64,000 bases of DNA from the NCBI GenBank assembly GCA_052246995.1, contig JBQPWD010000002.1:128001-192000 (forward strand), read 5' to 3'. The translations under genes and the position numbers were made by a program. This document shows positions 6,748 to 12,537 of this stretch, in pieces. The stretch comes from Candidatus Bathyarchaeota archaeon (lineage in GTDB: Archaea > Thermoproteota > Bathyarchaeia > Hecatellales > Hecatellaceae). The notes under the pieces were generated by a model, which did not search any database, was not told where the DNA came from, and was given only the letters and a program-made list of their open reading frames with translations. Every line of letters begins with the position of its first letter. Position 1 is the stretch's first letter.

Positions 6748-7064
6748 GGTTTGCTTGATTTATTTTTTTAAATTTAAAACTCGACTTTTATAAAGTTTTT
6801 AAATATAAATGTTCAAAAAGAAAAATTTACAAGAAAACACAATTTTAAGTATCTTTTACAAAAATATAAAAAAAGCTTTATCAAAATGCCGTATAACAAA
6901 CATATTTTTTAAATGTAATTGTTAAAAAAATGTTTTTCGAAAAAAGAATTAAAAAATTAAGAGCAAAATTTAAATTGAACCTGTATAAAAATCCTTTTTC
7001 AAGAAAAAATTTTAATAAATTGGTGTAAAATAAAAAACTAGTATTTGGAGGTTCAAAGTTAAGG

Positions 7065-7655
7065 TTGGGGAACAATACAAGTCGTAAGACATTTCTTCCA
7101 AGAAAATTCTTTACTGTAAGCGCCTCAGCAACAAGTAACATCTCTCCATTAAACGCGTTTGATGCAGCTTTGATGAAAGCAGGCATTGCTCAATGCAATC
7201 TTGTTTGTGTTTCATCTATTCTTCCACAAGATGCCGAATACATTGAGAAATATGAAATTACGCCGGGAACTATAACATTCTGTGTTTTGGCGAGAATGGA
7301 TGGAAACCCAGGTGAAACAATAGGTGCGGGTATTGGCTGGGGATGGGGTGTTGATGCAAATGGAAGGAAATATGGAATCGTGGCGGAGGCACATGGATAT
7401 AAGGATAAGGAAGCCATTGAAAAAGAACTTAAGTGGAAACTACAGGAAATGGCAAAAATTAGGGGAATGGAGTTATCATCAGTAAACATAAAAAGCGAGC
7501 ATTTTCAAGTCCCTAAAGGAAAATACGGAAGTGTTATTGTATCCTTGGTATATGTTCCATGGGATACTGAAGAGAATGAAAAAACTAGCCAAGAAGAGAT
7601 GGTAAAACAAGAAATCATAACTCAACAAGTAAAAGAAGAAATGACACTACAATAA
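7065..7655 (+). CDS. pdaD: pyruvoyl-dependent arginine decarboxylase
   Basis: LNAFDAALMKAGIAQCNLVCVSSILP with the Ser-Ser self-cleavage site; GIVAE. Confidence 0.9.
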   Translation: MGNNTSRKTFLPRKFFTVSASATSNISPLNAFDAALMKAGIAQCNLVCVSSILPQDAEYIEKYEITPGTITFCVLARMDGNPGETIGAGIGWGWGVDANGRKYGIVAEAHGYKDKEAIEKELKWKLQEMAKIRGMELSSVNIKSEHFQVPKGKYGSVIVSLVYVPWDTEENEKTSQEEMVKQEIITQQVKEEMTLQ

Positions 7656-7668
7656 CTCGTAAATACAC

Positions 7669-7713
7669 CATCCAATTTTTTGGAGGATTACCAAGTCTCC
7701 AATTTTTTGGATG
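7669..7713. repeat. tandem pair of TCCAATTTTTTGGA motifs forming a 45-bp imperfect inverted repeat
   Basis: Identical 14-mers at 7671-7684 and 7698-7711. CATCCAA...TTGGATG and TTGGAG...CTCCAA pair. Further copies at 10870-10883 and, 1 nt shorter on the minus strand, 3315-3327. Confidence 0.8.
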
Positions 7714-7846
7714 TTGGAAAAACATCTTCTAAAAGTGGGGAAAAAGAGGTACCCCTTAGTGTAAAAAATCTTGGAAACTTAGGGTTTTTTCTCCATGTTT
7801 TGTTATTTTGGTTAATTATGTATTACTATAACAACTTTTTCAACAA

Positions 7847-7880
7847 TTTTCTTTATATAACTTAGATTATATAAAGAAAA
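7847..7880. other. candidate tyrosine-recombinase core site (dif/loxP-like)
   Basis: TTTTCTTTATATAA-CTTAGA-TTATATAAAGAAAA: perfect 14-bp inverted arms with a 6-bp asymmetric spacer, 31 bp upstream of the recombinase ATG. The repeat is certain; the function is inferred. Confidence 0.7.
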
Positions 7881-7881
7881 A

Positions 7882-7893
7882 TCTTTATATAAC
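7882..7893 (+). promoter_or_regulatory. TATA box of the recombinase gene, coinciding with a third half-site
   Basis: TCTTTATATAAC repeats 7850-7861. TTTATATA (7884-7891) starts 28 bp before ATG 7912, consistent with a leaderless transcript. Confidence 0.6.
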
Positions 7894-7911
7894 CTTGAGA
7901 AATAGAGTCTT

Positions 7912-8973
7912 ATGCAGGAAGACTTCTCTAACTTTGAATCTGTCGCCAGATGGATAAGTAACTTTCCAGATAGACCAAACACGAAGAAGAATTATCTTAT
8001 TAGATTTAAAAAGTTTATTGATTGGATAGGAAAAAATCCTGATGACCTTATTGCTGAAGCAAAGAAAAATCCCCTAAAAATTCATAATAAAATAAAAGAA
8101 TACTATAATTTTTTAATAAAGAAAGGTTTTAGCTCTAAGACAGCTATCCTCTCCTATAATTGTTTAAGGTCCTTTTTCAAATGGAACGATATATTTTTAG
8201 GACCAACCCCCCGAGGATTTAAAGGTAGGGTTGAATATGAATCTTCCCATATTTTAACACCTGAAGAGATTGCAAAAATGGTTGATGTATGTAATAACAT
8301 GCGAGATAGATGTGTGATAACTTTTTTAGCTCAATCAGGACAACGTAGTGGGGTTTTAACGGCTCTTAGATATGGGCATGTTAAATCTGGGTTAGAAAGA
8401 GGAGAGACACCATTAATAATTGAAGTTCCAGCTGTTTTAAGAAATATTAATGGTGTAAATGTAAACAAGCTTGGAGAAAGCTATAGGTTTGCTGTTGGAA
8501 ATGATAGTATTACATGTCTTAAAATGATGCTCAAGGAGAGAATTGAGAGCGGAGAAGTTATTGATAAGGATAGTTGGCTTTTTAGAAGTTATTCAAAAGT
8601 TAAAGTTGAAAAAAGTGGGAAAAAAAGGCCTATTAGAGCATCAAAGAGTGAAAGAGGTTTTCCTTTAACAACAGTAGCTATACGTGAAATAATTAATAAG
8701 TCTGCTTTAAAAGCAGGAATTCAGGGAAAAGCTTCAGACAAAAGGTATGAGGTTCATCCGCATATTTTCAGGAGATATTGGAATATGAGAATGCAGGAAG
8801 CAGGATTAAGTGAAGATCTAAGGGATTTTATGCTTGGACATAAGTTACCTTATGGTGGAGCGTACAGCAAATGGTATCCTGATGCTATTAAAAGAGTATG
8901 GATTTCAAAAAATGTTGAAAAATATATTGCAATTCCATCAAAAACAATCTACGCGTATTCTGGACTACTTTAA
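7912..8973 (+). CDS. tyrosine recombinase/site-specific integrase
   Basis: N-terminal core-binding helices. RDR...SGQRSG (catalytic R), HPHIFRR (HxxR), MLGH...GAY (H/Y). The catalytic set looks intact. Confidence 0.93.
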   Translation: MQEDFSNFESVARWISNFPDRPNTKKNYLIRFKKFIDWIGKNPDDLIAEAKKNPLKIHNKIKEYYNFLIKKGFSSKTAILSYNCLRSFFKWNDIFLGPTPRGFKGRVEYESSHILTPEEIAKMVDVCNNMRDRCVITFLAQSGQRSGVLTALRYGHVKSGLERGETPLIIEVPAVLRNINGVNVNKLGESYRFAVGNDSITCLKMMLKERIESGEVIDKDSWLFRSYSKVKVEKSGKKRPIRASKSERGFPLTTVAIREIINKSALKAGIQGKASDKRYEVHPHIFRRYWNMRMQEAGLSEDLRDFMLGHKLPYGGAYSKWYPDAIKRVWISKNVEKYIAIPSKTIYAYSGLL

Positions 8974-9037
8974 CTTCAAAAAACTTTTATAGACGAACTT
9001 CCAATTTTATAAATTCTGCTAGCTGAGGGAGAAGATT

Positions 9038-10565
9038 ATGGGGTGTTATTTTATTTAGTAATAAAGAAGAGAATAAACCACGTGTAATTAAAATTTTTGA
9101 CACAACTCTAAGAGATGGAGAACAAACACCGGGAGTCTCTCTTTCACCTGAAAAAAAGCTTAGAATCGCCAAACTTCTTGATGAAGTTGGTGTTGATGTT
9201 ATTGAAGGAGGTTTTGCTAGCGTCTCTAGAGGGGACTTTGAGGCTTTAAAGATTATGAGCCAAAGCGGGCTTAACGCTGAGATTTTTAGTATGGCTAGAG
9301 CGGACATTAAAGATATAGATAAAGTTATTGAAAGTGGAGTTTGCGGGATCAACATTGTTGTTCCAGTATCAAAAATCCAGATTCAATACAAACTTAGAAA
9401 AACGTCAGATGAAGTTTTAAACTTAACATACGAGTGTGTTAATTACGCAAAAAAGCATGGGTTGATTGTTGAATTATCAGCTGAAGATGGCTCAAGAACA
9501 GAGGTTGAATTTCTTAAAAGCTTCTTTTTAACAGGTATTGCAAGTGGAGCTGACAGAATCTGCTTATGTGATACTGTTGGTGTTTTAACTCCTGAAAAAT
9601 GTTATAAGCTTGTAAATACCTTATGCAAAAGCACCAACAAGCCTTTTAGTATACATTGTCACAATGATTTTGGTTTAGCTACAGCAAACACTATCATAGC
9701 TGTTAAGGCAGGAGCATCTCAAGTACATGTAACCGTTAACGGTTTGGGTGAGAGAGCTGGAAATGCAGCATTAGAAGAGGTTGTAATGGCTCTTACAAAC
9801 CTTTACGGATTTAAAGTTAACATAAAAACAAACAAGTTATACGAGCTTTCCACGACGGTTTCACGCTTGACAGGTGTTCCAGTTCAACCAAATAAACCTA
9901 TAACAGGTGAAAATGCTTTTACTCATGAATCTGGCATTCACGTTAAAGCCATTTTAACCAACCCCGCCACCTATGAACCAATTCAGCCTGAAGTTGTAGG
10001 TGTTAAGAGAAAGCTTGCAATAGGTAAGCATGCAGGAATGTTTAGTGTAAAAACGATTCTCGAAGAAGAATTACACATTCATCCCTCGGAAGAACAACTT
10101 CATGAGATTTTTATGAGGGTTAAAAGCATTGGTGATAAAGGTAAAACAGTAACCTATAGCGACCTTCAAGCTATAGCTGAAGCAGTAATGGGTCTTCCAC
10201 AAATACGACTAATCAAGCTTAAAAATCTTACAGTAACAACAGGAAACAACATTACACCTATGGCCTCTGTCGTGCTTGAAGTTAACGGTAAAGAACTCGT
10301 TGAAGCTGGTGTGGGAGTTGGGCCTGTTGATGCAGCAATAAGTGCTATAAAGAAGGCTATATCAACAGTAGCCGACATAATCCTTGAGAATTATCATGTG
10401 AAGGCAATTACAGGTGGAACCGACGCTGTAGTTGAAGTTGTAGTAAGAGTAAGAAGAGGAGAAAAATCGGTTACAGCATTAGGTGTTCATGAAGATATTG
10501 TTATGGCTAGTGTTGAAGCAGTATTAAGTGCAATAAATGTATTGTTATCTTTAGAAATGAGCTAA
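9038..10565 (+). CDS. cimA: (R)-citramalate synthase / 2-isopropylmalate synthase family; start is anomalous (see findings)
   Basis: DTTLRDGEQTPGV at 9099 is in frame with ORF 9255..10565. HCHNDFG, GERAGNA, HESGIH and a C-terminal regulatory domain (GVGPVDA, GGTDA). Resembles methanogen CimA as I recall it; LeuA is not excluded. Confidence 0.75.
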
Positions 10566-10866
10566 TATTAGCAATAAACTTTTCAAATTCTGATAATGAA
10601 AAAATATTATTTTTGACATAATCCTGTACAAACTTATTTTTCAAGAGAAAACAGCTATTCTCTTTTTCATAATTTTTAAACAAAAAACGCATATTTTATA
10701 TCTTAAAATATAATCAAGTAAGCAAGTTTTTCTAAAAAATTAGTTGATGGTAGATAAATTTTATTGATAAGACCCCTAAACTTCTACTTTTCTCTCAAAT
10801 CTCCAAAATCTGAAAAGACCATTACAGTTAAACATAACCTAAAAAAGCACGATTACACCCTCATAA

Positions 10867-10884
10867 CTCTCCAATTTTTTGGAA
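10867..10884. repeat. copy of the CTCTCCAATTTTTTGGAA motif
   Basis: 10868-10883 is identical over 16 bp to 7696-7711. Confidence 0.75.
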
Positions 10885-11180
10885 GCAAGAAATGATAGCC
10901 TAGGTTTATAGCTTTATCTTGAAACTTTTAGATTAGTATCCAACGAAATACTTGTCAATGCAAAAATGTTGTTTTAAAAATAGACAGTATACCTCATCCA
11001 GCTGGCATCATTTTTACAATTCTTTCGCCAAAACCGAACAATATGCTAATATACGAAGTTTGTAAACCTTGACTGGGATGACTTCTGCGTATGTCTTGTG
11101 GAGGAGACTAAAATCTAATAAAGGTAGAATTGGAATATGTCTACGAAGTAGATGATGTATAAAGTTCCAGAGTTTATTTT

Positions 11181-11274
11181 TGGTAGCCCGGGGGAGATTC
11201 GAACTCCCGTCGGCAGGTTTCTCCTATCTTGGATAACCAGAGCCTGCCATGCTTGGCCGCTACACCACCGGGCT
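11181..11274 (-). tRNA. tRNA-Gln(CUG) with an 18-nt intron at 37/38 and encoded CCA
   Basis: AGCCCGG/CCGGGCT acceptor stem (A1-U72), GCAGG/CCTGC anticodon stem, CTG at 11240-11238, T-loop TTCGAAT. Intron 11236-11219 forms a bulge-helix-bulge. Confidence 0.97.
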
Positions 11275-11385
11275 TCCCATTCTATTTAATGGTGTATAAT
11301 TTTTAAATTTTAGGTTTCCTGTTTTAAGGAAACAAGATTAAGAATATATATGAAGTTTTATGATTTAATGTTTTGGTGATATTCC

Positions 11386-12537
11386 TTGGATTTTGAGTTG
11401 TCGAATGTTCAAAAAGACATCCAGACAGCTGCAAGAGAATTTGCAAAAAAAGAGTTTAGCGGAGAACTGGCAAGAAAGTTTGAACAGATAGAAGAATATC
11501 CGTTTGAATTATGGAAAAAGGCATGCAAACTAGGATTTATAGGAGTACATTTTCCTGAGGAATATGGTGGACAAGGACTTGGTGTTTTTGAGAATGTACT
11601 AGTTGTTGAAGAATTTTGTAAAGCTGATTCTACGCTTGGAACAGCATTAATTCTGGCAGATTTTGCATCGGAGATAATTTTAAGATTTGGAAGTAAGGAA
11701 CAAAAGGAAGAATGTCTTCCCAAAATATGTAAAGGAGAAGCCATCTCTGCGGGCGCTTTTACTGAGCCTCAGCATGGTAGCGATATTACCTCTTTACTCA
11801 CAAAAGCCTCAAAAGATGGAGACCACTGGGTTATTAGCGGTACAAAAACCCTTATAACAAATGCTCCTATTGCAAGTTTTTTTATTGTTTTATGCCAAAC
11901 CAATCCTGAAGCTAAACCACCATACAGAGGTCAAAGCCTCTTTATTGTTGATAAAAGTGCTGAAGGTGTAGATGTTACAAAAATTGGTGGAAAAATGGGT
12001 ATTCGGCCTTCGCTAACAGGGGAAGTATCATTTAACAATGTTAGAGTTCCAAGGGAGAAACTTATAGGTCAAGAAGGTAGAGGGTTTTACCAAACATTAG
12101 AGTTTTTTGATGAAAGCAGAATAGAAATTGCTGCTCAAGCTCTTGGTATTGCTGAGGGTGCTTTAGAACGTGCAATTAACTATGCTAAGCAAAGAGAACA
12201 ATTTGGTCAAAAAATTGCGGAATTTCAGGTTATCCAGCATAAAATTGCAGATATGGCAATAAAGGTTGAAACAGCAAGACTTTTAGTGTATAAAGCAGCG
12301 TGGAATTTTGACCAAAGAAGGATAGACCCGTGCTTAACTTCGATGGCTAAAGCTTATGCTGGAAGAGTTGCTGTTGAAGTTGCTGATGAGGCGGTACAGA
12401 TATTTGGAGGTTATGGGTATATAGGAGAATATGATGTTGAAAGAATTTATAGAGATGCAAAAATAACTGAGATTTACGAAGGAACAAGAGAAATTCAAAA
12501 AAACACTATTGCAAGAGCAATAATAGGAAAACTATAG
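11386..12537 (+). CDS. acyl-CoA dehydrogenase
   Basis: FTEPQHGSD, GTKTLITNA, REQFGQKIAEFQ, QIFGGYGY, IYEGTREIQ. Confidence 0.95.
   Translation: MDFELSNVQKDIQTAAREFAKKEFSGELARKFEQIEEYPFELWKKACKLGFIGVHFPEEYGGQGLGVFENVLVVEEFCKADSTLGTALILADFASEIILRFGSKEQKEECLPKICKGEAISAGAFTEPQHGSDITSLLTKASKDGDHWVISGTKTLITNAPIASFFIVLCQTNPEAKPPYRGQSLFIVDKSAEGVDVTKIGGKMGIRPSLTGEVSFNNVRVPREKLIGQEGRGFYQTLEFFDESRIEIAAQALGIAEGALERAINYAKQREQFGQKIAEFQVIQHKIADMAIKVETARLLVYKAAWNFDQRRIDPCLTSMAKAYAGRVAVEVADEAVQIFGGYGYIGEYDVERIYRDAKITEIYEGTREIQKNTIARAIIGKL

Follow-up and report, generated by a model that had tools for sequence, protein, structure and literature searches.

A palindromic, dif-like site just upstream of the gene of a single tyrosine recombinase in Hecatellales: a candidate gene-linked dimer-resolution module

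The stretch of DNA analysed here (64,000 nucleotides, referred to as the window) corresponds to positions 128001-192000 of contig C2 in the genome G000 (1.53 Mb, 17 contigs, 100% complete) of a heat-loving archaeon of the order Hecatellales (Bathyarchaeia). It carries on the + strand, at 7912-8973, the gene of a 353-amino-acid tyrosine recombinase, P0001, with a full catalytic set and a two-domain fold, preceded by a palindrome at 7847-7880. The left arm, TTTTCTTTATATAA (14 bp, 7847-7860), and the right arm, TTATATAAAGAAAA (14 bp, 7867-7880), are perfectly complementary (14/14) and enclose the asymmetric 6-bp spacer CTTAGA (7861-7866), the presumed crossover region; no strand is assigned to these three elements. 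The start codon, an ATG at 7912, lies 31 bp past the right arm. These features had been reported in an initial annotation of the sequence and were confirmed. The exact 11-mer core of the arms occurs three times in the genome, always at this locus: once in each arm and once as a direct copy at 7882-7892, which that annotation had not included. Perfect palindromes of the 14+6+14 type are expected 0.015 times by chance in 1.53 Mb of this composition and three were observed, including the site. The two others, at C7:84380-84413 and at C15:2628-2661 on a contig of 5970 bp, are likewise far above the chance expectation. A search of Rfam over 7000-11500 gave no match besides a tRNA. In sequence, the palindrome matches what is expected of a dif-like site (inverted arms, ~11 bp long in dif, a spacer of 6 bp, a core of the TAA...TTA type and a single chromosomal copy), and we regard both the site and its uniqueness as established.

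The recombinase was examined by profile, sequence and structure comparisons. P0001 matches the Pfam family PF00589 (Phage_integrase) at 44.7 bits, for a cut-off of 27.1, and is the sole match to this family in the genome; a weak SAM-like domain was found in its N-terminal part. The catalytic set of these enzymes, R-K-H-R-[H/W]-Y as listed in Castillo 2017, is represented by R145, K186, H284, R287, H310 and Y318. All six residues are invariant in 15 orthologues with a mean column identity of 73%, which argues that catalysis has been retained and indicates that the protein is under strong constraint. The annotated catalytic completeness of the enzyme was thus borne out and can be considered as established. 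R145 and the H284/R287/H310 block align with the matching residues of XerA (4a8e). The best NCBIfam model was that of archaeal XerA (NF040815), which scored 66.4 bits against a cut-off of 220, mainly over the N-terminal half; the other matches were to XerD, XerC and a FimB-like invertase, and the XerS model was not among the NCBIfam matches at E up to 1. Pyrococcus abyssi XerA was the only meaningful sequence match in the PDB (E 0.003). An AlphaFold2 model of P0001 (predicted local distance difference test score, pLDDT, 92.7) had Thermoplasma acidophilum XerA (E 8e-10) and P. abyssi XerA as top Foldseek matches, followed by IntI, Cre, Tn1549 Int and XerH (E ~1e-4). As modelled, the fold is a simple two-domain clamp, core-binding plus catalytic, devoid of an extra arm-binding domain, and we count it among the established points.

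The distribution of the gene was then assessed in the order, represented by 14 species genomes, G000 included. An orthologue with 60-88% identity is present in nine of them, in one copy and in one slot, and in seven of the eight genomes that are at least 90% complete. In every readable locus the CDP-archaeol synthase gene (CarS) is followed by that of the pyruvoyl arginine decarboxylase (PvlArgDC) and by the recombinase gene, the latter being preceded by an ATP-dependent DNA ligase gene in all genera except that of G000. Downstream lie leuA, SufC/SufBD or hydrogenase genes, depending on the locus. In two genomes (G004 and G010) the contigs stop within the decarboxylase gene. The neighbours in the window (CDP-archaeol synthase, pyruvoyl arginine decarboxylase and LeuA) are core genes, and core genes flank the slot in six genera; mobile-element genes were not found beside the recombinase in any of the nine genomes bearing an orthologue. 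This agrees with the earlier statement that no viral or plasmid genes lie nearby. The same annotation had also envisaged that the gene might be a patchily distributed mobile remnant; within the order it is not patchy and it keeps its slot.

To compare the sites, we used the 13 distinct orthologue loci with readable upstream DNA (in G006 this region consists of 100 N). The spacer measures 6 bp wherever arm symmetry fixes the register, with a left arm of the form TCTT...ATAA, its outer TCTT and inner ATAA being the best-kept positions, and a right arm of the form TTA...AGA; one locus, that of G003, can alternatively be read as 10-bp arms around 14 bp. The TAA-N6-TTA motif, present in the window, is kept in 11 of the 13 loci. 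Arm symmetry reaches at least 9/14 in ten of them (14, 13, 13, 13, 11, 11, 10, 10, 10 and 9), a level attained by a random arm pair with P ~0.007, in support of the prediction that a repeat would be conserved upstream of orthologues. The middle of the arms varies between genera with both sides altered together and palindromy maintained, as exemplified by G007, in which 13/13 positions are symmetric with a different arm sequence. The site lies 30-32 bp ahead of the start codon in G000, G001 and G007; related sites were found in the remaining readable orthologue loci, in three of which an open reading frame (ORF) of the LAGLIDADG type intervenes. When a degenerate site pattern (up to one mismatch) was run over all 14 genomes, matches on both strands were obtained at the recombinase locus in five genomes; G002, from which the gene is missing, gave none. 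Two both-strand and six single-strand matches were recovered elsewhere. The match on contig C39 of G004, located inside a permease-like ORF, was discarded as noise. The co-occurrence of the site with the gene, and their co-variation, are thus matters of observation. It is very unlikely that the palindrome is a by-product of an AT-rich promoter (a divergent one, for instance, or one with its TATA box duplicated) or a purely structural hairpin without a protein partner. In G000, the probable promoter element described below does recur in each arm as an identical TATA-like run, but the arms of G007, G005, G013, L086, L094 and L088 are not TATA-like and nevertheless palindromic with the same spacing, and neither a minus-strand gene upstream nor a T-run after the hairpin is present.

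The spacer behaves differently from the arms. In the sister species G001, the spacer reads exactly as the reverse complement of the G000 spacer, and BLAST aligned the 34-bp sites at 97% identity in inverted orientation within a collinear alignment of 81% identity. A second case was provided by G007 and the metagenome contig L085, which are 99.1% identical over 1787 bp with 13 mismatches and carry the spacers TTTAAG and CTTAAA, again exact reverse complements. The probability that at least two of 13 mismatches fall within the 6-bp spacer is ~9e-4, the complementarity of the letters not yet being demanded. Judged from these two independent cases, the asymmetric spacer flips quickly and repeatedly, the arms staying put. 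Flipping may be a by-product of the enzyme or result from template switching at a hairpin, to which a perfect palindrome is intrinsically prone. In either case, the orientation of the spacer relative to the flanks is not under selection, which fits a lone site without a partner. A search of sequencing runs pointed to six from two studies, none of RNA. Contigs from four sequencing runs, which were short and of low depth, included one spanning 7784-8125 without differences; these contigs, which cannot reveal minor spacer orientations, showed neither a variant nor a joint at the site.

The enzyme was next placed among archaeal recombinases. The XerA cut-off (NF040815, 220 bits) was reached in none of 41 relatives of the class, whereas 4 of 14 control genomes passed the same search. 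In a sample of 301 genomes of the phylum, 44 passed, all from other Thermoproteota; none of the same-class rows did, the best scoring 183 bits. G000 itself has no other tyrosine recombinase and no canonical xerA, which answers the question, raised with the initial annotation, of a second such gene; that no canonical XerA was found counts as an observation. A profile of the wider family (E up to 1e-40) gave matches in 73 of 401 class genomes, including the nine Hecatellales genomes with an orthologue. Members of this wider family are often several per genome, often lie at contig ends, measure 370-500 amino acids and sometimes form adjacent inverted pairs; some have small ORFs, toxin-like or unknown, as neighbours. 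A maximum-likelihood tree of 69 sequences was built with a quick method, and the root was chosen on 15 canonical XerA (every second of 30 fetched loci); the Hecatellales clade was monophyletic (support 100) within the wider Bathyarchaeial family, and a long, fully supported branch set canonical XerA apart from it. The suspicion that the protein is not a typical XerA proved justified by both the profile score and the tree: the enzyme is not an XerA, and seems to be a single-copy branch, bound to one slot, of an integrase-like family. Inverted repeats upstream of 19 wider-family loci never scored 9 or more, a weak negative given that this scoring recovers the site in no more than 5 of the 15 rows of orthologues. 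A scan for TAA-N6-8-TTA was positive in 4 of 21 wider-family loci, never just upstream of the gene, versus 8 of 12 orthologue loci. Adjacent opposite-strand pairs of wider-family recombinases of 390-450 amino acids were noticed on G007:C111, G177:C8, G313:C6, G351:C14 and G068:C110; the loci of such pairs are L021/L027, L114 and L115, the last possibly with three genes.

The reading that we favour, with a little better than even confidence, is that the site and the gene form a gene-linked, single-recombinase, dif-like module for chromosome dimer resolution, analogous to XerS/difSL of streptococci. We infer dimer resolution, binding, the cleavage positions and autoregulation from sequence. A simple tyrosine recombinase needs inverted arms around 6-8 bp and the palindrome is the sole conserved and unique candidate, so that it would be the core recombination site of the adjoining enzyme. 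One monomer would sit on each arm, two sites would synapse as a tetramer, and cleavage at the spacer edges would be followed by strand exchange across the 6 bp. With one site per chromosome, productive recombination would be restricted to copies carried by sister or dimeric chromosomes, hence the resolution of dimers or multimers. A branch of Bathyarchaeial integrase-like proteins would in this way fill the role of Xer in the order. A more elaborate scenario, which we consider doubtful, holds that XerA was lost or never present, that a mobile-element integrase was recruited as dimer resolvase and its crossover site fused to its own promoter, giving a self-regulating module that could be swapped whole between genera, always into the same slot (once together with a homing-endonuclease gene), and that the spacer flips are the footprint of the enzyme at work in vivo on a perfectly symmetric site.

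The position of the site also bears on the control of the gene. The third element, TCTTTATATAACC (7882-7895, + strand), is a direct copy of the left-arm core that ends ~17 bp before the ATG, and is the probable TATA box of the recombinase gene. We take ATCYTTATAYAAC to be the TATA box proper and the A-rich outer part of the arm to be the B recognition element (BRE), after the usual layout of archaeal promoters. G001, G007, G003 and L088 keep ATCYTTATAYAAC as such, whereas L086 and L094 have it with one or two T added. A gap of 1 bp separates the right arm from this conserved element, and the outer A-rich end of the arm probably abuts the promoter. As the right arm touches the probable BRE/TATA, occupancy of the site would probably repress the gene, bound recombinase hindering initiation at the adjoining promoter. 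The same arrangement has led us to consider that the palindrome is an operator only, bound by the recombinase as a pure repressor or by an unlinked factor, the real substrate being elsewhere or on a mobile element. The site stops just short of a TATA-like element found ~17-30 bp upstream of the start codon, dyad symmetry and fixed spacing are also typical of operators, and in G003 only the outer parts of the arms are palindromic. Against this, an unlinked factor with a single genomic site would be unusual, the invariance of the six catalytic residues in 15 orthologues indicates that catalysis is retained, no other conserved candidate substrate was seen, and the 6-bp spacer with its TAA-N6-TTA core matches recombination sites. 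We consider this explanation unlikely.

An integration module was considered as well, in which the palindrome is an attachment site that a mobile element uses or has left behind, the enzyme being either a host-borne integrase that captures elements bearing this site or a stranded one with its attP-like site. When rooted on XerA, the clade nests in the patchy, multi-copy family described above, with its contig-end positions, its inverted pairs and, for some members, its toxin-like or unknown neighbours, and in G009 the copy has been replaced by a foreign allele. On the other hand, the recombinase is devoid of flanking mobile-element genes in the nine genomes and keeps its slot between core genes in six genera; the site is present in a single copy, with no duplicate flanking an insert; and the arm pattern, when run against collections of viruses and genomes, met with unrelated matches only. 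These were one viral contig, in which a much longer AT-rich hairpin lies in unrelated sequence, and eight bacterial contigs taken as chance or unrelated, their contexts not having been inspected. Such a module is improbable in our estimation. As for G009, its flanks are closest to those of its congener G006 (ligase 73%, decarboxylase 91%, LeuA 87%); its recombinase is closest to that of another genus (76-77%, versus 62% to G006), with which it shares the LAGLIDADG ORF and the right arm. The comparison indicates that the G009 recombinase was replaced by an allele from another genus and that inheritance of the module is not purely vertical.

Several observations weigh against a dimer-resolution module. 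The allele replacement in G009 implies that the module has some mobility, and the wider family, patchy and multi-copy, looks mobile. G002, 98% complete, has the slot without ligase, recombinase or site. No XerA-model match at all was obtained in 16 of the 41 class relatives, near-complete genomes among them; with many Bathyarchaeia lacking a recombinase match, an Xer-type function may be dispensable in the class. The three loci with a LAGLIDADG ORF (G008, G009 and L090) have a symmetry of 5-7/14 and a distinct common right arm, and in G003 the outer 10 bp are palindromic, the inner TAA/TTA being lost. The cumulative GC and AT skews on contig C2 track the gene strand with no clear inflection at the site and are uninformative on the terminus. 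Finally, a site placed beside a promoter equally resembles a plain operator. Both orc1/cdc6 genes of G000 are on other contigs than the site, and the same separation is seen in G003.

The LAGLIDADG ORF deserves a description of its own. It is free-standing, encodes 130 amino acids and lies between site and gene at L064 7086-7481 (G009), at L009 1281-1673 (G008) and in L090, that is in three loci of two genera that have congeners without it; a weak Pfam match (E 1e-4) was obtained in G009 only. Together with the shared, less symmetric right arm and the foreign allele of G009, this looks like homing with co-conversion, as far as the sequences tell. Another small ORF (97-143 amino acids, no Pfam match) is found on the opposite strand just past the recombinase gene in most genera (L063, L064, L065, L066 and L073); it is present in the recombinase-free slot of G002 and absent from the corresponding 90-bp gap in the window.

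Several known systems can be compared with the proposed module. In Cortez 2010, dif is described as a 6-bp spacer with imperfect inverted repeats of 11 bp on either side, and Yamaura 2025 gives TAA(N)6-8TTA as the feature best conserved among the archaeal dif sites reported; the palindrome studied here shows both. Dimer resolution by homomeric XerA is presented as demonstrated in archaea by Cortez 2010 and by a 2021 review. The proposed module would resemble XerA/dif of Pyrococcus, Thermoplasma, Thermococcus and Sulfolobus in its homomeric recombinase, single site, 6-bp spacer and TAA...TTA core, XerA being moreover the best match of P0001 by family model, by sequence and by structure; in contrast, P0001 exceeds the solved XerA chains, which have 266-292 residues, by ~60-90 residues. 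Linkage of site and gene also has precedents, since predicted dif sites of Sulfolobales are reported close to xerA (Cortez 2010), dif-like elements upstream of the xerA operon in haloarchaea (Yamaura 2025) and an individual xerA/dif module in some archaea (Castillo 2017). Unlike here, dif is given as not adjacent to xerA in Thermococcales (Cortez 2010). In our hands, no TAA-N6-TTA repeat was found within ~1.4 kb of canonical Thermoproteota XerA (0 of 30 loci), and the precedent of a dif close to xerA was therefore not reproduced at that distance.

A close parallel is XerS/difSL of streptococci and lactococci. Le Bourgeois 2007 places difSL directly before xerS and proposes that the gene is autoregulated by way of this site. 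As reported for that system, the proposed module would consist of a single recombinase with a site just upstream of its own gene, kept across a taxon without canonical Xer. The XerS/difSL module is thought to have been acquired (Le Bourgeois 2007; Castillo 2017). It differs from ours in the domain of life and in protein family, and difSL (31 bp, 11-bp centre) contrasts with the near-perfectly symmetric site and 6-bp spacer found here. Archaea are moreover described as devoid of an FtsK partner in the 2021 review. In bacteria, XerH/difH and XerL/dif each stand in for XerCD in a lineage (Castillo 2017; Legionellales paper), and the proposed module would resemble them in being a single Xer system of a non-canonical type; their lineages are unrelated, and XerH is a distant structural match only (E ~1e-4). 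In loxP, arms of 13 bp enclose an 8-bp spacer. A two-domain enzyme acting alone on two symmetric arms with an asymmetric spacer would make the module comparable to Cre/loxP of phage P1; unlike the phage-borne Cre, however, the enzyme studied here is chromosomal and slot-bound, with ~14% identity over the structural alignment.

Gene-linked Xer modules as such are already known, from XerS/difSL and from the predicted Sulfolobales and haloarchaeal sites. What is new is the protein family, the near-perfect symmetry, the abutment on the probable promoter, the spacer flips and the setting in a class whose searched genomes yielded no canonical XerA; a description of a Bathyarchaeial Xer/dif system was not found in the literature searched, where the 2021 review was the one paper to mention both Bathyarchaeia and Xer. 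Bathyarchaeia are abundant and uncultured, and dimer resolution is poorly known in archaea beyond a few studied lineages. If the favoured reading is true, the module would be an archaeal counterpart of the replacement seen with XerS/difSL, and the Xer function would have been re-invented from integrases in both domains. It would also offer a compact in vitro system from a thermophile, made of one protein and one symmetric 34-bp site, and the arm changes that keep palindromy across genera would represent a ready-made specificity series.

Further downstream, a tRNA-Gln(CTG) of 94 nt, a length suggesting that it probably carries an intron, lies on the - strand at 11181-11274, ~2.2 kb from the recombinase gene. 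The initial annotation had stated that no duplicated tRNA end is found nearby; the tRNA is indeed not duplicated, although it is closer than that wording implied. Exact 16-nt direct repeats, TCTCCAATTTTTTGGA, are present at 7696-7711 and 10868-10883, and with this tRNA they could suggest that recombinase and leuA make up an island bracketed by repeats, which we hold to be highly improbable. In the sister species G001, leuA is not followed by a copy, and the third copy of that genome is located ~4.4 kb away on the other side. The motif follows the stop of the upstream gene in all genera, whether leuA comes after the recombinase or not, and it is also found at other loci and beside PvlArgDC in another family. 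Moreover, the repeat does not overlap the tRNA, which lies 300 bp past it, and the 5-bp arms around 4 bp contained in the 16-mer are too small for a core site. Judged on att duplication, tRNA target and element genes, the locus does not qualify as an integrated element. Only three copies of the motif TCCAATTTTTTGGA exist in the genome, and this locus holds them all (7671-7684, 7698-7711 and 10870-10883). Relatives have two or three copies each, mostly right after the stop of the gene preceding the recombinase and often as an inverted pair, and in a different Bathyarchaeial family (L108) a similar pair lies beside a 337-amino-acid recombinase whose neighbour is PvlArgDC. The motif may form a terminator-like hairpin or serve as a binding site for a protein.

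An unusual arrangement was observed at the start of leuA. In the LeuA frame (window 9024-9100), a stop lies just upstream and no ATG, GTG or TTG occurs before 9255. A Shine-Dalgarno-like GAGGGAG is located 6 nt before an ATG at 9038 that is one base out of the LeuA frame and opens a short reading frame (MGCYFI, then stop). The same layout was found in L062, L063, L064 and L086, and in five of six distinct genomes, an in-frame ATG being present in G007 only. Substitutions between genera in this region fall on third positions of the LeuA frame. The pattern is suggestive of a programmed +1 shift, or four-base step, taking place directly behind the start codon; the alternative would be a leader ORF with unusual re-initiation.

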